Assembly: GCA_965243025.1 (NCBI GenBank)
Contig: CBDETY010000003.1
Location: 4,256,001-4,320,000, forward strand
From: Candidatus Latescibacterota bacterium
GTDB taxonomy: Bacteria; Latescibacterota; UBA2968; UBA8231
Reading direction: 5' to 3'
DNA: 64,000 nucleotides
Part shown: positions 1 to 14,742 of the stretch, in pieces
How the letters are laid out: each line of letters starts with the position of its first letter
Numbering within the stretch: position 1 is the stretch's first letter
The notes under the pieces: model-generated
Told to the model about the DNA's origin: nothing
Seen by the model: only the letters and a program-made list of their open reading frames with translations
Database searches by the model: none
Translations under genes and position numbers: made by a program

Positions 1-1
1 A

Positions 2-61
2 CGGCAAGCCGACCATGCGGTGTCGGCCGGGACCCGAACAGGCCGCCTCGAGGTGCGCTGA
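2..61 (+). CDS. cas3: C-terminal tail of type I-G Cas3 (partial, runs off the window)
   Basis: Frame reads RQADHAVSAGTRTGRLEVR*. R-x-AD-H-x-x-S resembles the end of the C-terminal HD domain of I-G Cas3. Lies directly upstream of the cas8g-like gene. Confidence 0.6.
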   Translation, partial: RQADHAVSAGTRTGRLEVR

Positions 62-65
62 CCCC

Positions 66-968
66 ATGCAGAAAGCCCGTGAGAGGTGTCCGGGGTTGCC
101 CGGCTTTTGGATCAACGGCTGGCTGGCGGCGGTGGGAACCACGGTGCTGAACCCGCGAATCCGGCTGGGCTGGACCGAAGAAGGCGCGCCCCGGGCGCTG
201 CTGTCCTGCCCGCCGCGCCTCGACCCAGTCGAGGCCCTCGCCGCCGCCTGGCCCGACGCCGAACAGATAGCCGGGCTGCCGATCGCCGAACAGTGGCAGC
301 ACACCCCCCCCTTGCAGCGCAAGGTTTCCCTGGAAACCTTTGCCCAGCGTGCCCGCGCCGCCCGAGGCCACCCCCAGGCGTGGGCCCTGTCGTCGACCCT
401 GACCGATCTCTGCGTCGACGAGAACGGCCAGGTCGCCCATGCCCCCTTCGATCCGGCCGGGCCCGGATCCGTCAAGTGGCTGCATCACCGACTGAAGAAA
501 GTGCACGCCCTGGGGGACCCCGACCGCATCGCAGACTCCTTGGCCGGCAGGGGAAACCGGGTCAAAAACCACGGCCTGGGATTCGATCTGACCCGGCTGG
601 GCTCCCTGTCGGATTCGACCTCGGCATGGGTCGATCCGGTAATCGAGGTGCTGGCCTTCTTCGGCCTCGCCCTCCTGCCGGTGCGCGGAGCCGGGACCGA
701 CCGGCGCAGGGCTTTTCCGGCTCCGGCCCGCGAAATCCAGAAAGGATGGGTTGCGGAAAACCGGTGGGAGCGCCGCTTCACCTGGCCGGCATGGCGCCAG
801 CCCCTGGACAGCACCGGCATCGATGCGCTGCTGGACGCCTGGATGACCGTCCGCAACGACAAAAACCAGTGGCCGACCATGGGAGTGCATGCCGCATGGC
901 AGACCGTACAGTTCAAGCCCAGAGGCACCGCCGACATTACCCGGGCCTTTGGCGCCGAGCGAGTGTGA
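66..968 (+). CDS. Type I-G CRISPR-associated Cas8g/Csb3-like protein (Cas3-extension family)
   Basis: Motifs GLPGFWINGWLAAVG, LxW, GLGFD, DPVIEVLAFFGLALLPV and FTWPAWRQPL. ATG at 66 after GAGG. Followed by I-G-like repeats. Confidence 0.7.
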   Translation: MQKARERCPGLPGFWINGWLAAVGTTVLNPRIRLGWTEEGAPRALLSCPPRLDPVEALAAAWPDAEQIAGLPIAEQWQHTPPLQRKVSLETFAQRARAARGHPQAWALSSTLTDLCVDENGQVAHAPFDPAGPGSVKWLHHRLKKVHALGDPDRIADSLAGRGNRVKNHGLGFDLTRLGSLSDSTSAWVDPVIEVLAFFGLALLPVRGAGTDRRRAFPAPAREIQKGWVAENRWERRFTWPAWRQPLDSTGIDALLDAWMTVRNDKNQWPTMGVHAAWQTVQFKPRGTADITRAFGAERV

Positions 969-995
969 AGAAATTCCAGGGGCAGGCAAAGCCCC

Positions 996-1186
996 GTGTC
1001 GCCGGAAGAGGAAAACCCCCGGTCTTTGTTGAGCGGATTGTCAAGCCCTTTTTTCACCCCAGCCCACCGGGGTCGTCGCCGGGGTCGATCCCCCGGCCTT
1101 CGTTGAGCGGGTGTCAAGCCTTTTTTTAGCTGAGGCCCTCACCGGGTCCCGTCGCCGGGGAGGATCCCCCCCGGCCTTCGTTGAGC
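996..1186 (+). CRISPR. Degenerate CRISPR mini-array (3 repeats, 2 spacers), type I-G-like
   Basis: Repeats at ~996-1035, ~1072-1109 and ~1150-1186, consensus GTCGCCGGGG-N5-8-CCCCCGGCCTTCGTTGAGC with a hairpin and 3' TTGAGC handle. Spacers ~36-40 nt. Starts ~27 nt after the cas8g stop. Confidence 0.75.
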
Positions 1187-1213
1187 CGCTCGAAGAACAC
1201 CCCCCCTTTGGAG

Positions 1214-1576: not shown

Positions 1577-1723
1577 TCATGGCGGATGGATAAAGTTGGC
1601 CACCCGACTAACAATCCGAACCCGAGAAGGGCAAAGTGCAGCCCCGATATGACAATCATCGAAGCTTCTCGTTTGGCGGAAATCAGGCGGATCCTTACCA
1701 GCTAAAGGATAGGCGCAACGCAT
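1577..1723 (-). CDS. Small hypothetical protein (48 aa, Cys-containing)
   Basis: ATG at 1723 after a GGTAGG-like RBS; last ORF of a minus-strand run. Confidence 0.3.
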   Translation of the reverse strand: MRCAYPLAGKDPPDFRQTRSFDDCHIGAALCPSRVRIVSRVANFIHPP

Positions 1724-1746
1724 TGCACCTACCCCCTGGTCGGCAT

Positions 1747-1830
1747 CTACCGGCTGCGCCAGTGGTTCAGGACGATCTGAATCACCTCCAGCGCGACTTC
1801 CAGCAGAATCGCCAACCATCGTGGCATCAT
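1747..1830 (-). CDS. 27-aa amphipathic/hydrophobic peptide MMPRWLAILLEVALEVIQIVLNHWRSR
   Basis: ATGA overlap with the stop of 1827-2216; GGAAGGGG upstream. Confidence 0.45.
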   Translation of the reverse strand: MMPRWLAILLEVALEVIQIVLNHWRSR

Positions 1831-2216
1831 GAGCTATCACCCCCTTCCCGTGGTGGGTCTTTCCGGACGAACTTCCCGGTCTCGTCCCGCACTCTGCGCT
1901 GGGCAGCCCGCTGGGCCGCCCGACTTCTCGGGCTCGGTCCTTCCGGGTCTACACCGTTCTGGATGTCGTTGTCAGGGATACCGGTGGTGTCCCGTGGATC
2001 GGGCTCCGGTTTCATCCCGAAGTCGCGACGGACAACCGACAGCTTGTCCTTCACCTTGGCCTTGATCCATTCGGTGTGGACCTTGTTGAGGGCCAGCTTG
2101 TAGAGGTACACCCCCGCTTCCCTGGCCGCGACCACGGCGACGATTTTGACCACGGGTTTCAGGGAGTTCAGCAGTTTCCGCTGTTCCCCGTTGCCTTTCA
2201 TGGGATTGGGAATCAT
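1827..2216 (-). CDS. Hypothetical protein (phage/MGE-like)
   Basis: RBS AAGGAG; contains an RDETGKFV motif seen in phage proteins. Confidence 0.6.
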   Translation of the reverse strand: MIPNPMKGNGEQRKLLNSLKPVVKIVAVVAAREAGVYLYKLALNKVHTEWIKAKVKDKLSVVRRDFGMKPEPDPRDTTGIPDNDIQNGVDPEGPSPRSRAAQRAAQRRVRDETGKFVRKDPPREGGDSS

Positions 2217-2234
2217 GATGCTGCTCCTTTCGGG

Positions 2235-2444
2235 TCAAATGTCCTTCGGACGCCCGGGGGTCTTTCCTCCGGCCTCCCGGGACAGCAGTTCGATGAGTTG
2301 CCTTGCCCGGCCTACGGGCAGGATGATTTCGTAGGTGCCGCCTCCCTGGCGGTCGCCTTGAACGGAGATTCCCGGTATCTGAAGTCCCGAAAGGAAGGTG
2401 CATTCCTCTACGGTCTGGATCTCCACCGTGCGATGTTCGACCAT
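2235..2444 (-). CDS. Hypothetical protein (69 aa)
   Basis: RBS AAAGGA before ATG at 2444. Confidence 0.55.
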   Translation of the reverse strand: MVEHRTVEIQTVEECTFLSGLQIPGISVQGDRQGGGTYEIILPVGRARQLIELLSREAGGKTPGRPKDI

Positions 2445-2487
2445 GCGGTTTCCTTTGTTTGAGCGATTTGATGTTGGGGAGAGCAAC

Positions 2488-2520
2488 AAAAAAGCCCCCG
2501 GCCTTCGAAGAGGCGGGGGG
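2488..2520 (-). terminator. Intrinsic terminator downstream of the IS1595 transposase
   Basis: GC hairpin CCCCCGCC...GGCCGGGGG followed by a U-tract on the minus strand. Confidence 0.55.
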
Positions 2521-2543
2521 AGCGGCGAAGGGCCTGGCTGTTT

Positions 2544-3536
2544 CTATTTGACCAGATCCCGATACAACAGCCGTTTCCCCACCATCCGCGCCACCAGGTC
2601 CTCCATCTGCTCGAGGGTGTCCTTGTCGCGGATGTTGTGCCGGCCGACGAATTCGTCGATGTACCGCTGCAGGTGCTTGGGGGACATGGAGTGATAGGTT
2701 CCCTTGTAGGCTCGCTTGATCATCGACCAGAAGCTTTCGATGCCGTTGGTGTGGGACCCATCGGTTGAGAACTGGCCTTTCGAGTGAATGACGAACTCGG
2801 ATTTTCCCGGCCACTTGAAATCCTTCAAGGCACTGGCCCCGTCGCTGTAGAGGGTGCCGTTTGCTCTCAGGTGCTTCCGGGCGAACGCCCTCAGAATGTC
2901 GGCAGTCTCTCCAGGAACCACGCTCGCGGCGACCTTGCCGGTTTTTCGGTCCTTCATGCCCACCACGATGGTTTTTCCCTCCATCCACCGTTCCCGCAGC
3001 CTCTTGTCGGCGTGCTTGTTGGCCTCCTTTCCGCCAAAATAGGCCTGGTCGATCTCGCCTCTCCTGCTTGAGAGCTTCTCCTGGTCCGACCAGGCCTCGC
3101 GGATGCGGTGGCCCATGAACCAGGCCGTTGCATGCGTTACCTGGAGGTCCCGGTGCAGCTTCATGCTGGACACGCCCTTGAGGCTGGACAGGTGCAGGTA
3201 GATGGCGATGACCCATTTCTGCAGGGGGACCTTGGAGTGGGACAGCACCGTTCCGGTGCGAACGCTGAAGCGCTTTCGGCAGTCCCCGCACCAGTAGGGC
3301 ATGGATTGTCGGTCGGGACATTCCGATATCATGCCGTAACAGCCGCAGTGCGGGCAGTGGATCTGCTTGCTCCACCGGGTTTCTTCGAACCAGCGTTCGG
3401 CCGCGATGTCGTCGGGGAACCTGGCGAACAGCTCGATCAGGGACAGGCCGTTCCGGTCGTTCCTTCCCGGCCCTTCGGGGACGAGCCCCCTGCCGGCCTT
3501 CGACCAGCGGCCCAGGAATCGTTTCAGTCTTTTCAT
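2544..3536 (-). mobile_element. IS1595-family transposase (copy A)
   Basis: CPHCG...CGDC zinc ribbon; FSVRTGT, EIDQAYFGG, LYSD, HTNGIESFW, SPKHLQRY and GRHN motifs; RBS AAAGGA. Confidence 0.92.
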
Positions 3537-4055
3537 GGTTTCCTTTCTGGTGAGAAGGGGAGGAGCGGGTTGTCGGGACCGATCCCCCCGCGCAGGCCGT
3601 TCCGTGACCCCATGGCAGGTTGAAAACGGCTGCAACGGGTACCCCCGCTGCCTCCCCACTGCCTTATTCAATTATATATATAGAGTCTCAAGCCCTTTCA
3701 TGGATCGAACCGCCCCGAGGCCCATGCACTGTCCGGCCTGCCGAGGTAAACCGTATGCAAGGTCGATGTCGTCTGTGGAAAGGCGCCGCCCGCGGCTTGG
3801 CCTGATCCCCAAAAACCTCTGGGAGGCCGGATTTCGGTGTCCACCTCTGTCCGTCCGTACCCGGTTCGATTCTGCCTGGCTGGATGCCCTCGCTTCCGAG
3901 CGCACGGCACGGGTGAGCCGCGATTCGACGCCTCCTGCGCGTCGGCAGTTCCTACGGGATCGACATGGACCGGGTTCTTCGGCAAGGGCAGACGATACGG
4001 CCTGACCGACCCCGGCCACGACCCTTCCGGTACCCGGACGGGAGAGGACTCAGAA

Positions 4056-4493
4056 TCAGAGAATCCCGAGCTCCTTCATGGACACGCTTTCGCCAGCAGG
4101 AGCGACGACGACATGATCGAGCACCTGAATCCCCATAAGGCCACCTGCCTCGACAAGACGGTGGGTGAGATCGATGTCTTCCTTGGATGGGGCCGGATCT
4201 CCGGAGGGGTGGTTATGGGCCAGTATGATGCTGGTGGCTCCCTTCAGGATCGCTGCCTTGAACACCTCTCGGGGATGGACCAGAGAAGCGTTCTGGCTGC
4301 CGATGGAGGTCGTCTCATGCGCGACTACGCGATTGCGCGTGTCGAGGTGGAGGACGACGAACACCTCCCGGTCGGCTGAGACTATGTCGAGGGTATCCAG
4401 GTAGGCGAGCACCTCGTTGGGACTGGTGAGCGGCTCGGAGCATACGTCCTGCCAGATTTGCCGCACCTTGCGTTCTACGACTTCGAGTTTCAT
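4056..4493 (-). CDS. radC: RadC-family JAB domain protein (stand-alone, MGE type)
   Basis: VHPREVFK, AHNHPSGD...S..D and VLDH motifs; RBS AAAGGA. Confidence 0.9.
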   Translation of the reverse strand: MKLEVVERKVRQIWQDVCSEPLTSPNEVLAYLDTLDIVSADREVFVVLHLDTRNRVVAHETTSIGSQNASLVHPREVFKAAILKGATSIILAHNHPSGDPAPSKEDIDLTHRLVEAGGLMGIQVLDHVVVAPAGESVSMKELGIL

Positions 4494-4832
4494 CGGGTTC
4501 CTTTCATTATATAGAAGGCTACTCTGACTGATTGAGGGGGTGTGGGGCGCTTCGGCAGCCAGTGTGACGAGCCGGCTGCACTCGTTTCGACCCTCCTTCC
4601 CCCAGCCCGGGAGTCGAAGCCGGGTGGGGGGGGACATCGGAGAACGGTTTTCAGGACGGAGGAACCGGCGAAGGATTCAGGCCGAGGACTGTTTCGGAAG
4701 CATCCTCAGCCGGCAAGGATCAGATGATTTCGAGTTGATCAGGCGGGGTCCAACCACCCGGCTGGAGGCAAACTCTCCGAATTATCCAGGCAGGTGCCCC
4801 CTGACCGCTTCGATCAGACAGGGAGCCCCGGA

Positions 4833-5144
4833 CTACCGCACCGGAACCAGCGAGGATACCAGATCGTTATACACCTGAAGGAGGGCCTCTTTCGCCCTGG
4901 CCTGTGCCTCGTCGGAGCTGATTTCGGGGGCATCATGGTACACCAGCATCGTCAGCTTTTCCTGGCGCGGATAGATTTCGAAGTCGAAAGAGGGTCCCGG
5001 CTGAAGCGGCGGCTGGTAGAGGACCAGGACCACCTCCACCTCGGTAACGTACTTCCCTGCCGGCGGGGCGAAGATGCCGTCTGCGAATCGGTTGGGGTTC
5101 ACCCTCTCCGTCTGGCCCGGGAGGGCACGGATTCGTTCGGTCAT
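4833..5144 (-). CDS. Hypothetical protein (103 aa)
   Basis: RBS AAAGGA; plausible composition. Confidence 0.5.
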   Translation of the reverse strand: MTERIRALPGQTERVNPNRFADGIFAPPAGKYVTEVEVVLVLYQPPLQPGPSFDFEIYPRQEKLTMLVYHDAPEISSDEAQARAKEALLQVYNDLVSSLVPVR

Positions 5145-5174
5145 GGCAAGTCCTTTTCTTTGAAGGGGGAGATT

Positions 5175-5771
5175 TTGGAGCGGCTGCTGCAGCCGTCTGA
5201 AGAACTGGCTGCCTTGGTCGGGCACGAGCCGATGTCACAGGCTCAGGTCGTCCAAGAACTGTGGGGTTACATCCGGGAGAACGGGTTGCAGGACCCGGGG
5301 AATCCGCGAAGGATCAAGGCCGACGACCATCTCGGGAGGATCTTCGCGGGCAAGGATCGGGCGACCCTTGTGGAGTTGGCCAAGCGGGTCAGCAGACACC
5401 TGATGGCCGGCGCTCAAGGCGAACAGGCAGAGGAGGAAGTGCTCTGGAGGGAGTTCGAAAAGGAGATGCTGGCGTCGTGTTTCGAGACGCTGGGATGCTC
5501 GCCGGAAAGGTCCGACGAGGACCTGAAACGGGAATTCAGGGAGCTATGCCAGGAATATCATCCGGACAGGCTGGCCGGCGAGGAGATTCCCGCGGGTATC
5601 ATCAGGCTGGCGGAGGAAAGGTTTCAGGAGATTCAGAGCGCGTACGAAGTCGTGGTGAAATCCCGGACCCAATCCTCGTCCGCCCCTACCCGTCTCTGGA
5701 CCCTGGGAGAGCTTTTGAAACTAGCGGATCCCCCGGCATCTTGCGAACCTGAAGGAGGGATGGCCCGATGA
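5175..5771 (+). CDS. SWIB/MDM2 domain fused to a DnaJ (DjlA-type) J domain
   Basis: SWIB: PSEELAALVG...VVQELWGYIRENGLQDP...IKADDHL. J domain: LG...DLKREFRELCQEYHPDRL...AEERFQEIQSAYE. TTG start after AGGGGGAG; start uncertain. Confidence 0.8.
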   Translation: MERLLQPSEELAALVGHEPMSQAQVVQELWGYIRENGLQDPGNPRRIKADDHLGRIFAGKDRATLVELAKRVSRHLMAGAQGEQAEEEVLWREFEKEMLASCFETLGCSPERSDEDLKREFRELCQEYHPDRLAGEEIPAGIIRLAEERFQEIQSAYEVVVKSRTQSSSAPTRLWTLGELLKLADPPASCEPEGGMAR

Positions 5772-5845
5772 GAAGGTTCCTTTTGGCCGCTCTGGTTGCC
5801 GTGGTGGTGGCCTTTGCTCTTACGATGCTGCGAGTGATTCCATAA
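5768..5845 (+). CDS. 25-aa single-TM peptide MRRFLLAALVAVVVAFALTMLRVIP
   Basis: ATGA overlap with the SWIB-J stop; RBS GGAGGGA. Confidence 0.5.
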   Translation: MRRFLLAALVAVVVAFALTMLRVIP

Positions 5846-5860
5846 GGGTGTTCCATGTGG

Positions 5861-6133
5861 TCATCCTTTCTTCACCGCCATTTTCCTGATCTCCTCCAGG
5901 GCGGTGTCCAGATACGGATCCATGATACCCTCGGATTCTCCGAACAACTCCAGCAGTGCGAAGGTGAGGCATATAGCCTGCACTGCCGACACCGGGAGGG
6001 CGATCCCCCCCATCTCGGGGTGCCGGAAGAAGATGGCAATACAGGCTGGATCTACGTCCGCCATCAGGTGAACCTTCTCGAAGGCCACGTCCTGATATAC
6101 GGATTCGATTTTGCTTCTCGTTTTCTGGTTCAT
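5861..6133 (-). CDS. Hypothetical protein (90 aa)
   Basis: ATGA-coupled to the upstream ORF. Confidence 0.55.
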   Translation of the reverse strand: MNQKTRSKIESVYQDVAFEKVHLMADVDPACIAIFFRHPEMGGIALPVSAVQAICLTFALLELFGESEGIMDPYLDTALEEIRKMAVKKG

Positions 6134-6327
6134 GGACTGTTCCTTTCCCGGAAAAGGGTCTTGACCTCGGACAGACGGAACACGAGCTCGCGAACTTCCC
6201 CTCCGTGCTTCTGGCGGTGTGCGGTTGCTTCGGGAAGGGTTTCGAACCGGTCAACCTTCTTGTCCTTGATCACGGCATATCGGCGGATGACCCACCGTGG
6301 TAGATCACTTCGTCGGACATGGGGCAT
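6130..6327 (-). CDS. Hypothetical protein (65 aa)
   Basis: RBS AAGGAG, preceded by a TGTCGGT/ACCGACA hairpin. Confidence 0.5.
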   Translation of the reverse strand: MPHVRRSDLPRWVIRRYAVIKDKKVDRFETLPEATAHRQKHGGEVRELVFRLSEVKTLFRERNSP

Positions 6328-6556
6328 TCTCCTTTGTCGGTGGGTCACCGACAGTTCATTTGAAGGGGTCGTTTTGTCGATGGGAGCATGGAGCCAGGCT
6401 GAAAAGCTGATCCGGGAGGGTGCCGGGATGATGGGGCGGCTGGCTCAATTCATAAGGGTTTTCTCGCCCGTCCGCTTCTCTCCAACCCTGCATGTGCTTT
6501 GAAGTCGAGCCGGAAAAACCGATGGGCTGTCTGCAGCCGCAATCGCGATTACCTTT

Positions 6557-6697
6557 CCTCGATCTGTGTGGGAGGAGAAACGGGAATGGGGGAATTCGGG
6601 TGCCGAAGCCCGAAGGAACGGAATCGACCCGGTGCCCCGCGATCACCCCGGGTACGTCTACATGCGGGACGCGGGCGACGGATGGGTCGGTGAGTGA
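6557..6697 (+). pseudogene. Decayed excalibur-like Ca-binding domain, copy 1
   Basis: Reads NGNG..(fs)AEARRNGIDPVPRDHPGYVYMRDAGDGWVGE*, matching the DxNGNGRITCAEARxHGIAPV..HPAYxYMxDxDGDGxVCE type. Confidence 0.55.
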
Positions 6698-6929
6698 TCG
6701 AAAGCAGAAGTCAGTTCGGCGGGGGGGATGGAGGGGAGTTGGAAACCGTGATTCGAAACCGCTGAAGCGCGCAGGGGCAGATCCTGCAGGGAATGGGGAT
6801 AAATCCATTCCACTATCAGGTATACCAGATTTTCGGCGAAATCGAGCCTTTTGGTCCGGCATCCCCCCGTCGCAGCAGCAAGAAGGGACTTTTTAGCCGG
6901 TCGTTCTCACCCCAGTTCGGCTGTCCTAC

Positions 6930-6978
6930 GGAGGTAAATAACCCAATTTGGGTTAAATCATACCTCCTTGAGATCCAG
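6930..6978. repeat. Palindrome-containing direct repeat, copy 1 (TAACCCAA-T-TTGGGTTA)
   Basis: Homologous to 10164-10214. Confidence 0.75.
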
Positions 6979-7000
6979 AGATCCTCTACCGGAGGAACCT

Positions 7001-7144
7001 CCTCGATCTTGTGGGACGACAGCGGAAACGAGTGGATTGCGTGTGCTCAGGCCAGAAGGCACGGAATCGCCCCGGTATACCCCGCGATCATCCGTCTACG
7101 TCTGCATGCACAACGGAGACGGGGGCGGTTGGGTCTGGGAGTGA
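7001..7144 (+). pseudogene. Decayed excalibur-like Ca-binding domain, copy 2
   Basis: Reads WDDSGNEWIACAQARRHGIAPV(fs)PRDHP..YVCMHNGDGGGWVWE*; DNA similar to 6557-6697. Confidence 0.55.
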
Positions 7145-7336
7145 ACAGGAACAGCCTGTAGTAGAACGGTGAGAAGATCAGCGGCAGAGGGAACCGAAGC
7201 CGGGTCTTGACGAATCGGCAAAATGCGGGAGTGCTTTTTCCGGCTCAAGAGGACTACGCTCGGGGCATAGCTCAATAGACGGACAAGAGGCTCCAGCCCA
7301 TTGCCTCCCAGCCTGCTCGATTCCCCCTGCCACGAA

Positions 7337-7492
7337 CTATCCGTCATCATCGTCGGCAGATCTCTTTTCCTCTCCGGGGTCTTCCTTCTCGCTGCAGGGG
7401 ATGCAGATGTGCTCGCCGGGGGTGGGCATCCAGAACAGGTGCCAGGGCCTGATTTCCTGGCCGCATACGCAGCAGACCGGCTTGAAAACCAT
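7337..7492 (-). CDS. Small zinc-ribbon protein (51 aa, CCVC...CIPC)
   Basis: ATG abuts the upstream stop, RBS GGGAG; MVFKPVCCVCGQEIRPWHLFWMPTPGEHICIPCSEKED... Confidence 0.55.
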   Translation of the reverse strand: MVFKPVCCVCGQEIRPWHLFWMPTPGEHICIPCSEKEDPGEEKRSADDDDG

Positions 7493-7723
7493 TTACTCCC
7501 TCGTGTCCCGGATTCGGCCCTCCTCGTCCACGAAGATCCGGAAGGGGGAAGCCACCATTTTTCGGGAGGACTTGGTAAGGCCGTGCACGCACTCGATGCA
7601 GATATCCAACTTCCTCCCCTCGGCCATCATGCTGGCCGTTCCGACCTTGAGTTGGCCGCGTAAATCGTCTTCGGATACGACCCCGTTGCAGATATCACAG
7701 ATTGTGGTGGCCATTTCGAGCAT
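7493..7723 (-). CDS. Small zinc-ribbon protein (CDIC...CIEC)
   Basis: RBS AAGGAG; two CxxC pairs. Confidence 0.6.
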   Translation of the reverse strand: MLEMATTICDICNGVVSEDDLRGQLKVGTASMMAEGRKLDICIECVHGLTKSSRKMVASPFRIFVDEEGRIRDTRE

Positions 7724-7943
7724 TCTCCTTTCCGGGTGGATTGAATGCCTTGTAGGACAGGATCAAGCCCCGTTCCTGGTGGTGGATGATGGCTCCCATG
7801 AGCCGGAGATACCTTTCCGGCATGGTTCGCTTTCCCTTCTCCCACAGGCACACCTCGGCCTCACTGACGCCCAGGGCGAGGCCCAGCTCCCATTGCTTCA
7901 TGCCCAGGGCGTCTCTGGCCCTTTTCAGCTGATCCTGCTTCAT
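7695..7943 (-). CDS. Cro/XRE-family HTH transcriptional regulator
   Basis: LKRARDALGMKQWELGLALGVSEAEVCLWEKGKR HTH pattern; RBS GGAGAG. Confidence 0.8.
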   Translation of the reverse strand: MKQDQLKRARDALGMKQWELGLALGVSEAEVCLWEKGKRTMPERYLRLMGAIIHHQERGLILSYKAFNPPGKENARNGHHNL

Positions 7944-8340
7944 CTTTATTCTCTCCATTTGGGGGGGTTGACTGTCGGTGGTCACCGGCAGAAAGGCACA
8001 GACTGGCCCTGAACCGGGCTTGAAACGGAAAGCCGGCAGCAGGGTGTTGAGAGGGTATTCGGGTTCCCGGTGAAGCCGGGATTGGAGGGAGAAACCCGCG
8101 ACGGAATTCAGCGAGCCGGTAGCCGGAGCTACCTCCGCTCTCACTACCTTCCCGTTATCTGCAAAAAGGGATCAGAAGGGACTCAGCGTGGTACGAATTC
8201 GGCAACCTTCGCGGCGTCGGTGTATAACTGAACTGAGTGATGAAAACCTGGAATCGCAACTGATTCGGTTGCAGTCCCTCGGGTCGTTGAAGCGGGCAGT
8301 CGCAGGTCCTCCAGGGCAGGAGTAAATCTTCCTCTATAAG

Positions 8341-8349
8341 GTTATACCA
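8341..8349 (-). promoter_or_regulatory. Extended -10 promoter element (TGGTATAAC) ~400 nt upstream of the Cro-like gene
   Basis: TGn-TATAAC in an AT-rich patch; same motif as at the IS1595 ends. Confidence 0.45.
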
Positions 8350-8650
8350 GTTTTTTTCGAAAATCGCGCTTTTGGTCAGGCATTCTACCGTAATGTTCCT
8401 CACCGCGGTCCTTCTCGGAATGCTGGCCATCGGCTACCTTGTAGTCGCCATTGTGATGATGTATGTCTGCACCGTCGTATTCCCGGAGAATCCGGCATCA
8501 CTCATCCTAAATCGTATTTTGCGTAGATAGGGGCGGGAAGAGCCATGTATGGCTTTGCTGCCACGATGGGTTTCCCTTTCCCAAATGGTCCGCGAGGCCG
8601 TCAGCCTGCCACAAACCGGGCAACGTAACAACCGCAACGGATGCGTAACG

Positions 8651-8974
8651 ATGGAAAAGCCGAAAGGCCGGCTGGCCAAACACACCCTCTTCACGACCCT
8701 TTTTTCGTTCTGGATCACCGGTTTCCTCGCCGGACTCATCTTCCAGACCACCCCGGGCGACATGGCGGTCCTTCTGATCCTTGGGAGCTTCGCTATCCCG
8801 ACCATCGTATCGCTTCCGATCTACGGGATCCTGGTGCGCAAGACACCGAACAGGGTCTTGGTCGTGGAGAACAAGTGGGATCTGCGAAATGTTGGGGCCG
8901 TGGCCTCCCTGAGCAATATCCTGATCACCTTCGGGCTGACGGTGTTCATCTACTGGAAGCTGTTTGGAGGGTGA
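8651..8974 (+). CDS. Hypothetical membrane protein (3 TM)
   Basis: Three hydrophobic helices. Confidence 0.6.
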   Translation: MEKPKGRLAKHTLFTTLFSFWITGFLAGLIFQTTPGDMAVLLILGSFAIPTIVSLPIYGILVRKTPNRVLVVENKWDLRNVGAVASLSNILITFGLTVFIYWKLFGG

Positions 8975-9059
8975 TCCCCAGATGAGGTTAAACCAGGTCC
9001 GCCTTCCCTTGTCGGCTACTTCTCAACCGCTGGGGATCAGACACCGGATGGCTTCGATG

Positions 9060-10095
9060 GGCCTCCCATCTCGACCCGAGGGGGGCTTTTTTCCCGATCC
9101 ACGGGGCCGATTCCAGGGAGGTGTTTTCCTGCTTCGGTGTCCGGATAGCCTGTGCTGCTTCGCCTGAGATCGGGGACGGTGCCAGACCGGGAAGAAAGCA
9201 TGAAGGATCGCTTCGTCCCCAAAGCCCTTTCCGTCGAGAAACAGCGCCATCAGGTCGATGCTTGCAGAAATTTCGGCCAGCTTGCGGGATACCCTCGCAA
9301 AAGACCTCGCATTTCGCGTAGCGGCCTCCTCGACGCGCGGTTCCTGAAATCTCCCGGATAACCCGGCGATTGCATCTTCGCCGACTTGACCTCGCAGCGC
9401 GACCCCGTTTTCGCCGATTGCCGGGAACAGACCTTTCCGGGGGATAGCCTTCTCCCCTGCCACGAATGGGGGGGACCCCTGACGTACCGGCGGGATCCGG
9501 TGGCGTGACGAGGTCAGGCTCGCTCTCCGCCTCCACCTCCTCTGTGGAGGGGTGGACATCCCGCTGCCCGCTGCCTCCATTCAGTATTCTCCGCAGGAGA
9601 ATACCCCCTTTTTTCGCAGCGTAGTCCTGCAAGGACCGTGCCAGGGGGCACTCACGGCCTGCCGGTTCGCCAGGCTTTCAGGGAAGGGATACCCCTCGCC
9701 TCGTAGTTCCGGGCAGCCAGCACCCTCGACACCCTGTTCCCTGAATCCCCCAGGAACACCGATCCCGGACTGAGACCCCCTCCTCGTTCAGAAGCCGGGG
9801 GGCTCCGATCCACCGTGCCGATTTCCCAAGGGGGTGTGCAAAGGCAACGAGAGGATCCCTCCCGAATCGTCGGCTTCTGTATTCACTACGCTACGGGAAA
9901 ATACCCTCTTCCCAGCGTCGACCCTCAGGGGAGCTCACGGCCTGCCGGTTCGCCAGCTTGCGGGATACCCTCGCCTCGTAGTTCCGCAGTTGCACCTCGC
10001 CGCTCAGTTTCTGAATCTCCCAGGCACCCCGATCCGGACTGAGATCCCTCCTCGATCAGAAGCCGGGGGCCTACGATCCACGGTGGCTCTTCGGT
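9060..10095. repeat. Cluster of degenerate ~290-nt repeats
   Basis: CTCACGGCCTGCCGGTTCGCCAG at ~9651 and ~9934; CGATCCACNGTGCCG-type core at ~9095, ~9806 and ~10074. Confidence 0.75.
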
Positions 10096-10163
10096 CTACT
10101 TATTTGCGGCCCCTTGCGGCTTCGAAGGGGGCTGGACCAGACCCTCTTCATACCCTGATTCAA

Positions 10164-10214
10164 GGAGGTTAAATTACCCAATTTGGGTAAAATCAGAGCT
10201 CTTTGAGGTCCAGA
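10164..10214. repeat. Palindrome-containing direct repeat, copy 2 (TTACCCAA-T-TTGGGTAA)
   Basis: Homologous to 6930-6978. Confidence 0.75.
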
Positions 10215-10621
10215 TCCATCGATGAGACGTGCTTCTGGCGATGCCGGCAGACTCCAGCCGTTTCGCAGGCCGTGTCCCCGGAAGATACGTCTGCCCTCTC
10301 TCTGATCGTCTTCGCGCCGAAATTACACCGCTGAGTATCTGCTGGAGGGACTGCCCCTGCGGTATTGGAGTTCGTCAGGTCCGGGCTCGGCCTGTGCAGC
10401 CCCACTCGTTCACCGTCCTTACCCTCCAACTCCGCCTGACCTGAGGGCATCCTTCAGCGTAATCGCATCCCCCCGGTAGCTGTCCTTCTTCACCGGCAGA
10501 CCCTGGAGCCCGGGTCGGGTCCTGAAGCCCCCGATTTCCACTACCGGGTGACTGTAAATCACGGATTCTCCCATCCTACTCAAGTACGGCGTCGGCCTCG
10601 TCGGCCGGCGCCTGATCAAAC

Positions 10622-11672
10622 TCATTCGACACCGAAATGCACGCTAGCTCGTCCGGGAACCGGAATCCGTTCTCGCTTTGCCATGGATAGGACAATCCTA
10701 CCACAGAGCGTCAATGCCTCTTGACCCAAGGCGTGAAGCTCGGATTCCTCCAAATGTTCGCCCCGCTGCTCGCCGCCGTCCTTCCTTCCACCGTGGAACA
10801 AGCGGCTCCGCTTCCCGTACAGGGCGTCCCAATCCGGCCACAAGTCCGACAGGTCATTTGAATCAAGCATCTTCCGTATCCGCTGACGGATGCTCTCGCG
10901 TTGTATTCCGCGAATCGCCTTGGCGACCTGGCCGACCTCTTCGCCGTCGCGATGCGTGCGCTCAAGCCAAGCGGCGGCACTTTCGATCAGTCCCTTCTGT
11001 GCGTCCGTCCACGGCGGATCGGTCGCCAACCCTTCGACGGTGGAAACCGCTATCACGATCTTCATGATCGGGTCGGTATTCATCTCGGCCAAATTCAGCA
11101 CCCTCACCGCCCGCCGAATCGAGGGGGAAATCGCCCGCGGGCTCATCGCTCTTCGGCAACGCGTCCTGAAGAGCCTGCACGAAATCACCGGCATTCGAGC
11201 ATACCGACCCCGTCGCCCGCCCCAGGCGAACGAACACCGTCTTCTCGTCGTCCGGCAGGACCTGGAGGCCATGGATGTCGGATCCGAGTCGTGTATCGGG
11301 ATCCAGGGCACCGGTTTCTCGCAAGAACTCCGGATTGACCCATGAGACCGTGCGGTCTTCGCCCGGGTCGCCCGCGTCGACACCCACTCGGGCGCACAAC
11401 CCGGCCATATGGGCGGCTCGCCGGAGCTTCTCGCCGAAATCCCGTGCCTCGTCTTCGGCCTCGAATCCGCGACATCCGATCAACAACCATGACGCCTCTT
11501 TGAGCGGTTGCGACCTACTTTCGGACTCGATCACGACTTCCCTGCCGGCCACCGATGCCGTCAGGGCAGCTTCTTCCGTTCCCAGCGTCGTACCCACCCG
11601 AAGCTTCAACCAGAGGCGATAGCCCGTACTACTCTCCACTGAATCAGCCTCCTCTTCATTCTGTTGGCCCAC
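10622..11672 (-). pseudogene. Frameshifted HEPN (ApeA/MAE_28990-like) domain gene
   Basis: N-terminal part in ORF 10962-11672. C-terminal part in another frame with LYGKRSRLFHG (RxxxxH). Frame switch near 11125. Confidence 0.65.
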
Positions 11673-11702
11673 CGTTGACGGGTTAAGCCTAACGCGAAGC
11701 CG

Positions 11703-11760
11703 CTACAGAATGTAGTCGTTCCATGCCTGTAGCACTTGCTTGCGGCGCGCCATCAGGTCG
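11703..11760 (-). pseudogene. C-terminal tail of a tyrosine (phage) integrase
   Basis: Reads DLMARRKQVLQAWNDYIL*, typical of the DLxxRRxxMxxWxDY terminus. Confidence 0.55.
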
Positions 11761-11949
11761 ATTGTTGCAGAAGTTCGGCCATGCTTGCGGATTCTCGGCG
11801 CAGGCCCTTCGCAGTTCCGCTCCTCCTTCTTCAGCACCCGCAGCGGGTTTTCGGACATCGGCACCCCGACCCAGCCGTTCCTGAAATCTCCTGGAAACCC
11901 GATCCGAACTGAGATCGCTCCTCGATCAGCCCGGCAACCTCCTCGCCCT

Positions 11950-12278
11950 CCCCCAGTCCTGCCGCCCCTCTCCCCCTTGCAGAAGGCGGATAAAGTTTTA
12001 CGCCGTCATTACGAGATTTTTAAAATTTACCCGGACGCCGATTTGCTTTTTTAGTCTATCCAGGTACAATAGAGGCACATGCAACGGGAATCCGGCAGGA
12101 CCCACTGCCGCTTCCCCAGTCCCTTCTGCCGGTGCCACACCGACAGAGTCACATCCCACTGAAACCCGAAAGGACTGCCATGGGAGCGTGAATCACATCG
12201 TTTTGTAAGGGCCGTCTGGTTTCAACACGGTACTCCACGGCCCGAAGATCAGTAAGGATGAGTAATGGTAAAAGCATC
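11950..12278 (+). mobile_element. Truncated IS1595 leader, promoter and first 7 transposase codons (MSNGKSI)
   Basis: Homologous to 13615-13960 (rc) and 25150-25485; promoter TTGCTT-N16-TACAAT at 12043-12070; cut by the end of copy B. Confidence 0.8.
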
Positions 12279-12300
12279 GGGAATTATATACATAACTCAG
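12279..12300. mobile_element. IS1595-type terminal inverted repeat (GGGAATTATATACATAAC), downstream end of copy B
   Basis: Reverse complement of the 27162-27180 end; homology extends ~120 nt inward. Confidence 0.7.
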
Positions 12301-12699
12301 CAGGTAATTTAAGTAATCTCCTCCGCGAATTTAAAGAAATTCTGGTATAACCATATGGAAAGAAAATGCAGAGAACCGGACTTCCCCTGTCCCACTGCTT
12401 TAGCCCTGAGACACGGAAGAATGCCAGATTGACCCCGTGGGATCGAAAAGGCCGGGCTCTGATGGAGAGAAACCGGGACTCCTGCCCTGATCTGATGTCG
12501 GCGACTGGCAACGGTTTCTGCATCGGGCATTTCCCCATCTCGGTTGACGGCTCACCTCGCTGACTGGATACGAGAATCCCCCCGGCACGTTTCACGTCAG
12601 ATCTCCCTGGAGGCCGGCACTGTGGATCGGAGAGCCTCCGCCTGCATCGAGCAACGGGAAGGTCCTTCAGGGACCAGGAGAGCATCCCTGCATCCGGGA

Positions 12700-13623
12700 T
12701 CAGGCGAGCAGGGTTGCCGTCGTTGATTTCACCTGGGGGTTCGTCATCCTGCTGACCTTTCGGAAGGGTTCGCCCTCTCTCCACCGATGATGAGTGTAGG
12801 GGGTCGGAGGGATCTCCGTCGCCTGCAGATTCCGATAGGTCAGCCGTTTCCTCATCATCCCTGCGGTCAGATACCTCATCTTCTCCTCGGGGTCCAGGCG
12901 ACGGATATTGAACCTCCCTGTTATTTCGTTGAGGTACCGGGGGAAATACTTGGGAGACAGGTGACGAAAGAGCTCGCGGATCGTTCGCTTCGCCTTAGCC
13001 CAGAACGATTCAATGCCGTTCGTATGCGCGTCTCCCCGGACGTATTCGCCGGAACTGTGATTTACGATTTCGTGCCTCCCCTGCCATCCGAAACCACGAT
13101 AGACCGTGACATAGCCATACCACCATTCGTGACCAAATTTCTTCTTGCGGTGCCTCTTCTTGTCGTCTCCGCCGAAATAGGCTTCGTCTATCTCGGCTAT
13201 CCTGCTGCGTAGCGGTTCGGGATCCGACCACCCTTCCCGGATGCGGTGCAGCAGAAACCAGGCCGTTTTCTGCGTCATGCCGAGGTCGCGGGAAAGCTGC
13301 ATGCTGCTGATTCCCTGCGGACGGGACAGGTCCAGGTGGATTGCGATGGCCCATTTCTGCAAAGGGACCTTGGAGTGGGACATCACCGTTCCGGTGCGGA
13401 CGCTGAAGTGGTTTCGACAGTCGCCGCACCAGAAGGGCCTGTGCGCGCGGTTGCGACACGGGGTTATCATGCCGAAGCATCCGCAGTGCGGGCAATACAT
13501 GGATTCGGGAAGGCCATCTACCGTCTTCCCCCATCTGAGTTCTTCGAACCATTTTTCTGCTGCTGCATCATCTGGAAGCATTCTGAACAAATCGATTAAC
13601 GAGATACTTTTGCCATTTTTCAC
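12700..13623 (-). pseudogene. IS1595-family transposase (copy B) with an in-frame internal deletion
   Basis: Close paralogue of copy C, but lacks ~45 aa including the second catalytic Asp (LFSD) segment. Confidence 0.85.
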
Positions 13624-13800
13624 TTCCGATACCTTCGGGCCGTGGAATACCGAACTGGAGACCTGCGGCCCTTACCAAAACGATGTGATTCACGCTCCCA
13701 TGGCGGTCCTTTCGGGATGGTGACTCTGTCGGTACTCCCCGACAGAAGGAACTGGGGAAGCGGCAGCGGATGCTACCGGGTTTCCCCTCGATTTACCGTT

Positions 13801-13828
13801 ATTATACCTGGATACACTAAAAAAGCAA
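13801..13828 (-). promoter_or_regulatory. Sigma70 promoter of IS1595 copy B (TTGCTT-N16-TATAAT)
   Basis: Near-consensus; conserved at 12043-12070. Confidence 0.65.
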
Positions 13829-14299
13829 ATCGGCTTTCCGGGCAATTCGGTAAATGCTCGTAAGGAAGGAGGGAAACTTTGGTTTCTGGGAGTGGAGGAG
13901 GCTTGCAGGAGTGGGGGAGCGAAGAGGTCGGCGGGGGGTGCAGGAAGGGGAGCCCGGTGAGCAGCGGTTCCCGGCAGTCGGCGGAAACGGAGGCGCGCTG
14001 GGAGGTCGAGACGGGAAGACGGGGGTCTCGGATATCGGGAGGAGGCTGAGGCTACGCGTTTGGGAGACGGCAATCCCGGGTGTTTACCCGGGAGGCTCAC
14101 GAAACTGGGCGTCTGTGATGGCGGTTACGGATGGGCTCTGGTGGCGATGTGCCTCGGCGCAAGGCCTTCGCCGATGATCAGGAGATCCTTGATCCCTAGG
14201 GGGTTCCATGCAGGCAGCATCGGAAAACGAGCGAGCCGCCGATTACCCTGGTTTTTGCCCCGTCCCATCGGGGTCAGCGGGAGGGGGATGTTGTGCTCG

Positions 14300-14398
14300 C
14301 TATCTATTCTTTCGCTTGCGTCTGCGTCGCCACAACCAAGAAAAAAACAGGGTATCCAAAACAACGAAAGCTATCAGGATGAGAATCCAATAATCCAT
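14300..14398 (-). CDS. 32-aa TM peptide with polybasic tail (MDYWILILIAFVVLDTLFFSWLWRRRRKRKNR)
   Basis: Clean ORF after AGGA; hydrophobic core plus basic C-terminus; immediately downstream of an IS1595 remnant. Confidence 0.55.
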   Translation of the reverse strand: MDYWILILIAFVVLDTLFFSWLWRRRRKRKNR

Positions 14399-14432
14399 CT
14401 TTTTCCTGCTTCCCCAACGGATGGTACTTCAT

Positions 14433-14620
14433 GGCCGACGAGATCGCGGTTATCGGAGCCCTCCGCCCAGGCCCCGGGCAAACAGGCACATCTGCTCGAC
14501 GGTGTCGCAGTCCCGGATGTTGTGCCGTCCTTGGAACTCGTTCACGTATCGCTGCAGGTGCTTGAAACTCATGCGATGGAAGGTGCCGTGATAGCCCCGT
14601 TATTATAGCATTGCCCAGAA
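14433..14620 (-). pseudogene. IS1595 transposase C-terminal remnant
   Basis: FWAML**RGYHGTFHRMSFKHLQRYVNEFQGRHNIRDCDTVEQM. Confidence 0.8.
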
Positions 14621-14742
14621 AATCCGCAAAAAAAGATAAAGGTCCTGGACAAACGGACAGAGGTTGTCCTCTTGGCGGTTATCTTGTGGTATGGAAGTAC
14701 AGCCATCCGCATGGGCAGTGATGCCCAGAGGCGTGGAGGGGG

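Follow-up and report, generated by a model that had tools for sequence, protein, structure and literature searches.

A two-spacer mini-array behind a type I-G cas operon without adaptation genes in a Latescibacterota genome: a possible binding-only guide module

The locus and its mini-array

The window considered here is a stretch of 64,000 nucleotides (nt) from the genome of a Candidatus Latescibacterota bacterium (G000:C3:4256001-4320000; GenBank assembly GCA_965243025.1), which comprises 6.8 Mb in 3 contigs and is 96% complete. The window starts inside the last gene of a plus-strand type I-G cas operon, which was read from the genome as stretch L002, and behind this gene lies a mini-array of three diverged CRISPR (short palindromic repeats that are clustered and regularly interspaced) repeats, R1 to R3, enclosing two spacers (Table 1). 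On the best reading of the locus, a reduced type I-G system, from which cas4-cas1-cas2 and the main array have been lost, has this mini-array as its sole source of guides, since the genome contains no other guide source and no Cas1 or Cas2. It is tentatively proposed, with confidence just short of even, that the mini-array is a functional variant of the CreR-like mini-arrays and acts as a hard-wired, binding-only guide module.

For comparison, two relatives were used: G001 (locus L007), a genome of the same genus, and L008, from a metagenome-assembled genome of the Vicinamibacterales. In both, the same four cas genes lead straight into cas4, cas1, and cas2, and these into a leader and arrays, which comprise 24-25 repeats in G001 and 109 repeats in L008. 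At the G000 locus, no cas4, cas1, or cas2 stands after the last cas gene, nothing past R3 is homologous to the adaptation genes of the relatives, and there is no leader. Pfam searches of the whole genome for Cas1 and Cas2 gave no match either; an earlier interpretation made from the letters of the window (the sequence-only reading) had noted the missing adaptation genes, and the sequence after R3 and the whole-genome searches agree with it. The genome contains no further copy of the repeat and no other CRISPR-like array, the candidates of a k-mer scan being protein-coding or plain tandem repeats. Among these, window positions 17950-18520 looked array-like in the k-mer scan and were rejected, as their ~72-nt tandem units encode leucine-rich repeats.

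The last gene of the operon had been called cas8g. Its place in the operon, that of the large subunit, agrees with this name, whereas the profile evidence stops short of it: the score against NCBIfam NF049934 ('type I-G, Cas3-extension family') is 64.5-64.7 bits, just under the cut-off of 65, the PADLOC Cas8g match is weak (E 2.4e-6, over the last ~90 residues), and Pfam gave no match. The gene is therefore referred to as Cas8g-like. Its family comprises 247 homologs at E<=0.001, typically of 280-310 aa, and this length suggests that the real start lies ~60 codons into the open reading frame (ORF). Csx17 (Cas8g) is roughly double the ~300 aa of this family. In a search of 61 genomes of relatives (G000 included), the gene was found in two, G000 and G001, and a protein-based genome scan returned one relative, with a normal locus.

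Table 1. Features of the mini-array (window positions) and genes of the cas operon (positions in L002)
Feature	Position	Length	Strand	Evidence or predicted role
Hairpin GGGGC-N7-GCCCC	979..995		+	between stop codon and R1; sequence and fold
Repeat R1	996..1035	40 nt	+	alignment to canonical repeats
Spacer 1	1036..1072	37 nt	+	first 19 nt = reverse complement of AAAAAAGGGCTTGACAATC
Repeat R2	1073..1109	37 nt	+	predicted 3' hairpin (guide 1) and 5' handle (guide 2)
Spacer 2	1110..1148	39 nt	+	first 18 nt = reverse complement of AAAAAAAGGCTTGACACC
Repeat R3	1149..1187	39 nt	+	predicted 3' hairpin of guide 2; no spacer after R3
cas7g/csb1	L002 10710-11918		+	TIGR02570, 60.4 bits (cut-off 38); PADLOC Cas7g match
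csb2 (Cas5-Cas6 fusion)	L002 11923-13344		+	TIGR02165, 166 bits (cut-off 45); PADLOC Cas56g match
cas3g	~L002 13341-16061		+	TIGR02621, 546.5 bits (cut-off 400); PADLOC Cas3g, E 3e-174; C-terminal HD domain
Cas8g-like gene	full ORF L002 15892-16968; 3' part = window 1..968		+	NF049934; weak PADLOC Cas8g match

The last cas ORF stops at the TGA at 966-968, which leaves a gap of 27 nt before R1. The repeat boundaries were set by the canonical 37-nt repeat of G001, GTGTCGCCGGGGTAAGCACCCCGGCCTTCGTTGAGCG, and a repeat search independently recovered the three repeat cores, at 74-81% identity to R1. The arrangement described by the sequence-only reading, three diverged repeats ~27 nt past the last cas gene, thus holds on the sequence and on the alignment alike. 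The repeats are also genuine I-G repeats by alignment to the canonical repeats of the relatives, G000 having no other array for comparison. The hairpin in the gap is not followed by a T-run and is unlike a terminator, and a scan of positions 800-1700 found no plus-strand terminator-like site. An Rfam search returned nothing relevant.

Spacer 1 starts with GATTGTCAAGCCCTTTTTT and spacer 2 with GGTGTCAAGCCTTTTTTT, as had been described. About 17 of the first 19 nt are identical between the spacers, as are the last ~7 nt, while the middles differ; the repeat search likewise reported a 16-nt stretch common to both spacers at 94% identity. The shared 5' part reads directly as the reverse complement of an A-tract plus TTGACA, and this earlier observation stands. 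The shared CACCGGG stands as well, except that it lies 1-2 nt before the 3' end of each spacer and is not terminal. The spacer lengths fit the 35-42 nt range of the first spacers listed from related arrays. On the evidence of the sequence, sharing of both spacer ends points to duplication rather than two separate acquisitions, and the two repeat-spacer units are now only ~70% identical to each other. In the related array L011 (G098:C388:1-1789), two spacers alternate in the order A-B-A-B, which shows that duplication of entire repeat-spacer units takes place in this family of repeats.

Two simpler roles for the spacers were considered and rejected. As minus-strand promoters they show CGGGGG or GGGGGA 17 nt after the -35-like word, no -10 box, and an empty promoter scan, and as a terminator the spacer T-run would lie 23 nt past the repeat hairpin, where the scan called no plus-strand site. 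The locus is contained in DNA contigs from 4 studies, and no RNA run was listed for it. Among the differences listed, two variants come from low-depth contigs (depth 2-2.6) of two other studies: the T-run of spacer 1 (window 1048, L002 17048) is one T longer in one run and that of spacer 2 (window 1121, L002 17121) one T shorter in two runs, which may be homopolymer variation or assembly error.

The three repeats differ in what they retain. R1 retains its 5' part (GTGTCGCCGG) intact, as well as its last 8 nt (GTTGAGCG), which are predicted to form the 5' handle of guide 1, whereas its hairpin is degenerate: a 5-bp stem encloses a 13-nt loop, the fold of -7.1 kcal/mol is no better than that of shuffles, and two C>T changes stand between stem and handle. 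R2 has the canonical 7-bp hairpin with a 12-nt tail (-15.7 kcal/mol), has the architecture of the G001 repeat, and departs from the canonical repeat solely in the loop and the first two bases. R3 keeps the 7-bp stem with a loop 2 nt longer and C instead of G as its last base (-17.5 kcal/mol). The handle is preserved 8/8 in both R1 and R2. In relatives, the family repeat has the same 7-bp stem and the same 12-nt tail, and its loops vary freely between species. The hairpin and 12-nt tail of an I-G repeat are thus present in R2 and R3, and R1 retains the tail only.

In type I-G, Csb2 cuts 4 nt 3' of the repeat hairpin and leaves an 8-nt 5' handle (PMC9638904, in part). The 7-bp stem plus 12 nt of the family repeat therefore fits such a cut. 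Two guides would need four elements, namely the R1 handle, the R2 hairpin, the R2 handle, and the R3 hairpin. By alignment, decay of the repeats is selective, as all four predicted guide-making elements are intact and the changes lie in loops, in the hairpin of R1, and in the last base of R3, the latter two being parts that these guides would not use. This sparing could reflect selection or luck.

Partial matches in the organism's own chromosome

The genome was scanned for matches anchored at spacer position 1, with every sixth base skipped and the score counted in 'specified positions'. Spacer 2 matches C3:6035410 at positions 1-17 except position 12 (16/17; 15 specified positions), and its second-best anchored match in the genome reaches 10 specified positions. 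None of 1000 composition-preserving shuffles reached 15, the maximum being 14. The agreement falls from 16/17 to 4/22 in the remainder of the spacer, and this abrupt end makes the match unlike a decayed copy of a full protospacer. For spacer 1, the best ungapped match is 25/30 at C3:5933653, with mismatches at positions 1, 3, 12, 25, and 27 (0/400 shuffles reached 25; maximum 24). This likeness reaches past the promoter-like word, covers ~28 nt, and suggests common descent.

A control with family genomes was added because shuffling destroys the T-run and the -35-like word. Across the 76 genomes of this family-wide pattern search, G000 included, the patterns GGTGTNAAGCCNTTTTT and TGTCAAGCNCTTTTTTCACCC are each confined to a single genome, G000, with one copy in the spacer and one at the site. 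The spacers therefore resemble the organism's own DNA, over and above a generic promoter consensus. The composite motif TGTCAAGC.{0,2}TTTTT has five copies in the 6.8 Mb, all on the plus strand: two are in the spacers, one is at site A (C3:4250458, which lies 250 nt upstream of cas7g), and the others are at C3:5933656 and C3:6035412. The sequence-only reading had taken both spacers for guides against -35 boxes; the genome scan, the shuffles, and the 75 other genomes together uphold partial, 5'-weighted self-matches of both spacers at AT-rich, promoter-like intergenic sites. GC-rich spacers do match this GC-rich genome easily, and 13 of 181 spacers from G001, L008, and G097 show anchored runs of 15-17 positions in G000.

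All matching sites lie in AT-rich intergenic DNA and read A-tract-GCTTGAC(A/T) on the minus strand, which is -35-like; by this -35/UP-like word and by their position, the sites are putative promoters. Site 6035410 falls within a ~110-nt block upstream of a gene for a giant fn3 surface protein. A diverged copy of the block (C3:4250258-4250340; L002 10258-10340; site B) stands between cas7g and a divergent 3069-aa ORF, so that one giant fn3 gene sits back-to-back with the cas operon. The block beside cas7g points to the giant gene, and the block of the 6035 locus points away from its own. The two giant genes, at L002 1024-10233 (minus strand) and at ~5585-14863 (plus strand) of a second genomic stretch, L023, are paralogs of ~3,070-3,160 aa and 84-97% identity. 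Both encode many fn3 domains, and the product of the one beside cas7g shows a Por_Secre_tail domain in its C-terminal part, a sorting signal of the type IX secretion system (T9SS). Neither the promoter block nor the start of the giant gene was found in the 12 relatives searched. A tyrosine recombinase gene (Phage_integrase, E 2.7e-13) has site 5933653 in its upstream region, at a distance of 550 nt, and no recognizable mobile-element genes and no tRNA lie nearby.

A segment of ~230 nt (G000:C3:6035329-6035561; L023 5329-5561) holds the 6035 block and is flanked by the inverted core ATATGATGGGTTA; judged from this layout, it could be an invertible (phase-variable) promoter. A further candidate explanation of the motif, as the end of an insertion sequence (IS), was rejected: the IS1595-family copies stop ~500-670 nt from the motif sites and their flanks are non-homologous.

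Of the few copies of the motif in the genome, two fall within the 476-nt region upstream of cas7g, and the sequence-only reading had counted the cas promoter among the possible targets. Under such CreR-type autoregulation, the guides would direct Cascade to the stretch that separates cas7g from the giant gene, and the cas operon would be repressed. Spacer 1 agrees with site A, C3:4250455, at 13 of 15 specified positions, and site B (~4250325) is a copy of the form GTCAAGC-TTTT. For spacer 1, 11 of 14,235 windows of 476 nt equal the region. In addition, CreR/CreA-like elements have been reported for type I-U (=I-G) (preprint 10.1101/2023.03.10.532045, in part) and a mini-array is given for 4% of 235 I-G loci (PMC10120712, Table 1, in part). 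However, sites A and B are the weaker matches, each with a mismatch at seed position 3, and site A is only marginally unusual, being equaled for spacer 1 by 4 of 203 low-GC windows. As a -35 box, the motif stands on the strand opposite cas7g and points at the giant gene, the scan found no plus-strand promoter upstream of cas7g, and the two sites are flanked by CGG and CAT instead of TTN. The known CreR genes are located upstream of the cas genes and occur beside a normal array (10.1101/2024.10.29.618823, in part), whereas the mini-array here stands downstream and alone. Autoregulation is accordingly judged improbable; the two motif copies upstream of cas7g remain as observed, and on present matches a target elsewhere in the chromosome is more likely than the cas promoter. 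A toxin promoter, another target that had been suggested, is not borne out, since Pfam, PADLOC, and PHROG searches recognized no toxin-like gene beside the array.

The spacers may also be ordinary immune memory, taken from a mobile element with a strong consensus promoter related to the chromosomal sites and still guiding interference or nicking. Their lengths, within the range of the related arrays, would suit this origin, as would the resemblance of spacer 1 to 5933653 over more than the promoter-like word and the tyrosine recombinase gene adjoining that site. Yet no mobile-element genes are recognized around the recombinase, the Cas3 helicase is degenerate, and the shared spacer ends speak for duplication rather than two acquisitions. 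Full-length phage protospacers, which the sequence-only reading had named as a finding that would speak against regulation, were sought in IMG/VR and none was found. The first 20 nt of the spacers match 17 and 9 viral contigs, respectively (20-25/37 and 20-23/39 overall; 28-56% GC), a contig count estimated to be about that of chance for such 5' 20-nt patterns, and no match extends further. Immune memory is thus regarded as very unlikely.

Effector conservation and the case for a binding-only module

Up to 119-120 homologs of each Cas protein were aligned, and the positions on which >=95% of the other sequences agree and at which the test sequence differs were counted, every other sequence serving as a control. 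Cas3g of G000 differs at 35 of 317 conserved positions (others: median 3, 90th percentile 8, maximum 16), and the differences are split unevenly, with 33/238 in the helicase half versus 2/79 in the HD/C-terminal part. Csb2 differs at 3 of 168 (others: median 2, maximum 7) and Cas7g at 12 of 205 (median 2, maximum 7). The Cas8g-like protein differs at 0/15 positions, or at 1/33 and 2/54 when agreement is relaxed to 90% and 80% (others: median 4 at 80%). In Cas3g, motif II has changed from DEAH to DETP (A and H are present in 119/119 homologs) and motif V from ATQT to ATPV (Q in 119/119, T in 118/119), and VVNRRLLVD has become VGDRPLLAE; the motif names follow what we take to be the scheme of superfamily 2 (SF2) helicases. 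The G000 protein is also without a segment of ~13 residues after motif VI (around 'YVHL...') that is present in G001 and L008, and it is one residue short in the conserved RLRGG stretch. The four cas ORFs, 6.3 kb in total, have no internal stops. Their pairwise ratio of nonsynonymous to synonymous substitution rates (dN/dS) is 0.14-0.37, which is uninformative on the G000 branch because dS is saturated.

The helicase motor of Cas3g has thus probably been lost in G000. In the characterized type I-G system, Cas3 is an integral effector subunit, and Walker A/B mutants still bind and nick DNA with no degradation (PMC9638904, in part). The conservation pattern fits a complex that still makes and holds guides and keeps Cas3 as a structural part whose motor is no longer needed, because the degenerate helicase is accompanied by preserved Csb2, Cas8g-like, and Cas3 C-terminal parts. 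The unevenness tells against simple decay, since general decay should hit all Cas proteins alike.

We infer from these features how such a module would be transcribed, be processed, bind, and repress. The mini-array would probably be read through from the cas operon, and cleavage of each repeat by Csb2, 4 nt past the hairpin, would yield two guides. Each would start with the 8-nt handle GUUGAGCG, continue with a spacer of 37 or 39 nt, and close with an intact hairpin at the 3' end. With their 5' parts, the guides would pair with A-tract/TTGACA-like sequences in the organism's own chromosome, the best candidate sites being C3:6035410, in the block upstream of the giant fn3 gene, and C3:5933653, upstream of the recombinase gene. 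The complex would then stay on the DNA and block transcription in the manner of CRISPR interference (CRISPRi). Binding with no degradation would be expected because guide and target pair only in part and Cas3 has degenerate helicase motifs. The proposal is plausible because genome-specific self-matches, selective preservation of the repeats, and uneven Cas conservation coincide. Of the two-guide silencing module put forward by the sequence-only reading, the self-matches and the spared guide parts lend it support, while no TTN protospacer-adjacent motif (PAM) was found at the matches and a cas-promoter target is weakly supported.

Several findings weigh against a binding-only module, foremost the PAM. 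The I-G PAM is given as TTN (PMC9638904, in part) and as GAA on the complementary strand (PMC10504553, in part). The triplets 5' of the matches are CAT (6035410 and site B), CGT (5933653), and CGG (site A), none of them TTN, so that the reported I-G PAM is absent beside them, in contrast to the functional PAM at the targets of CreR/CreA guides. Spacer 1 moreover has seed mismatches at positions 1 and 3 at 5933653 and at position 3 at site A. The targets are also doubtful as promoters, as a simple sigma-70 consensus scan called no site a promoter and no convincing -10 boxes were seen at the matching sites. The significance of the matches is overstated by shuffles that break up the T-run and the promoter-like word, and, given the shared motif, the extra agreement of spacer 2 with the 6035 site is estimated at p ~0.01-0.05. 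Within the mini-array, the R1 hairpin may be too weak for cutting by Csb2, and neutral duplication of repeat-spacer units occurs in related arrays (L011). Cas7g, too, departs somewhat from its family (12/205). Finally, the mini-array is known from one species only; a pattern scan of metagenomes for further copies returned 6 contigs, all of 36-48% GC, promoter-like, and unrelated to CRISPR.

The sequence-only reading had expected a TTN-flanked seed match at a promoter. The genome search did not deliver one: for the first 11 nt of either spacer, there is a single TTN-flanked match, at C3:51624, where a methyltransferase gene starts. This one match is roughly the number that chance would give, the estimated expectation being 0.24. 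The PAM of the variant with the short Cas8g-like subunit may differ from the reported TTN, because its large subunit belongs to a ~300-aa family unlike the characterized Cas8g. Attempts to derive this PAM from natural spacers gave no protospacers. A BLAST search of 132 spacers of the G001 and L008 arrays against G000 produced chance-level matches only, the L008 array had no match in phage or plasmid collections, three natural spacers of related arrays had 0 matches in IMG/VR, and a whole-array search of the family genomes (3 candidates scored per genome) recovered arrays and no protospacers.

The principal alternative is a decaying remnant, in which one deletion, perhaps after self-targeting autoimmunity, took cas4-cas1-cas2, the leader, and most of the array and left the old, degenerate trailer end with a duplicated spacer and inert RNAs, in a locus heading for loss. 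The missing adaptation genes and leader, the degenerate Cas3 helicase motifs, and the mild deviance of Cas7g all suit such a history. The degenerate R1 hairpin and R3 last base, the IS1595-family elements nearby, and the duplicated units of L011 point the same way, and self-matches lacking a TTN PAM, together with the seed mismatches of spacer 1, are the pattern expected after escape from autoimmunity. Against this stand the open cas ORFs and the uneven conservation, in which Csb2, the Cas8g-like protein, and the HD part of Cas3 are conserved at a normal rate and the helicase half is not. The ~70% identity of the two units, if neutral, implies a long time during which the cas genes have stayed open, the repeat changes avoid exactly the parts needed for two guides, and the genomic match of spacer 2 ends abruptly past position 17. 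A remnant is on balance considered rather unlikely, though it is a serious competitor to the binding-only module.

Regulatory mini-arrays are an established kind of element, with examples from I-G/I-U noted in surveys; they are known as accessories of working immune systems, from which a stand-alone mini-array differs. The element described here resembles CreR/CreA and the other regulatory mini-arrays (crRNA-like RNAs) of type I and V-A systems in its degenerate repeats on either side of a spacer that, in its 5' part, shows partial complementarity to host DNA, in that binding without cleavage would be expected, and in its location inside a cas locus. The PAM-proximal partial self-complementarity of CreR/CreA guides is present as well, with the mismatches at 1 and 3 in the case of spacer 1. 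It differs from this group in having two guides, not one. It also lies downstream of the last cas gene rather than upstream, it is the only array in a genome without cas1, cas2, and cas4, its Cas3 partner has degenerate helicase motifs, and its best matches are elsewhere in the chromosome, without a canonical PAM and with no toxin gene adjacent. As far as the sources cited in part here extend, the literature describes no stand-alone mini-array with an adaptation-less I-G effector and a helicase-degenerate Cas3; the supplements of 10.1101/2023.03.10.532045 (Figure S7) and PMC10120712 may list similar ones.

With the canonical I-G system of Thioalkalivibrio sulfidiphilus (PMC9638904, in part) the locus shares clear family members in Cas3g, Cas7g/Csb1, and Csb2, and a repeat hairpin followed by 12 nt. 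It departs from that system in its gene order (cas7g-csb2-cas3g-cas8g-like), in a large subunit that is a ~300-aa 'Cas3-extension' protein, in the separation of Cas4 from Cas1 in the relatives, in the absence of an adaptation module, and in the change of DEAH to DETP. Orphan or degenerate self-targeting arrays are likewise marked by spacers that match the host genome, a degenerate array, the loss of cas genes, and IS elements in the vicinity. Unlike in those arrays, the effector genes here are intact and unevenly conserved, and the guide-making parts of the repeats are spared.

A more far-reaching proposal, held to be unlikely, is that the I-G effector has been domesticated as a transcription regulator. 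Lacking adaptation and helicase activity, it would use two hard-wired guides to repress chromosomal promoters of a lineage-specific system, namely the possibly invertible promoter block of the two giant fn3/T9SS-tail surface-protein genes and the region upstream of the solitary tyrosine recombinase. In Francisella, the scaRNA (small CRISPR/Cas-associated RNA) and tracrRNA (trans-activating CRISPR RNA) guide Cas9 to repress an endogenous chromosomal surface-protein gene outside the CRISPR locus. The regulation proposed here would be alike in pairing a CRISPR effector with a short non-canonical RNA aimed at a surface-protein gene; it would be unlike in that the Francisella case involves a class 2 single effector within a complete immune system and the present one a class 1 effector without adaptation genes.

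If the domestication proposal were true, the locus would provide a natural 'CRISPRi' of class 1 that controls the expression of surface proteins. More generally, a functional stand-alone mini-array in a genome that cannot acquire spacers, with a Cas3 stripped of invariant helicase residues beside conserved RNA-processing and large subunits, would show the type I system of a soil-type bacterium moving from immunity to gene control with Cas3 retained, unlike transposon-associated or type IV systems. A natural pair of partially matched guides and targets would also bear on what I-G Cascade needs for binding versus cleavage, and would offer a system for learning what the short Cas8g-like subunit reads as PAM. 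Even as a remnant, the locus would be a clean case in which uneven subunit conservation can be used to separate repurposing from decay.

Genes beyond the mini-array

The ORF after R3 (1181-1549) has no Pfam, NCBIfam, PADLOC, or PHROG match. It is followed at window ~1692-4500 by a multi-copy element that carries an IS1595-family transposase (ORF 2544-3671, minus strand) with a RadC-like gene alongside. Elsewhere in the genome there are at least 7 copies of this IS1595-family element, at 83-93% identity, one of which lies ~600 nt from the 6035 block. Adjoining the RadC-like gene, an ORF at window 4794-5771 joins a SWIB/MDM2 domain to a DnaJ domain.

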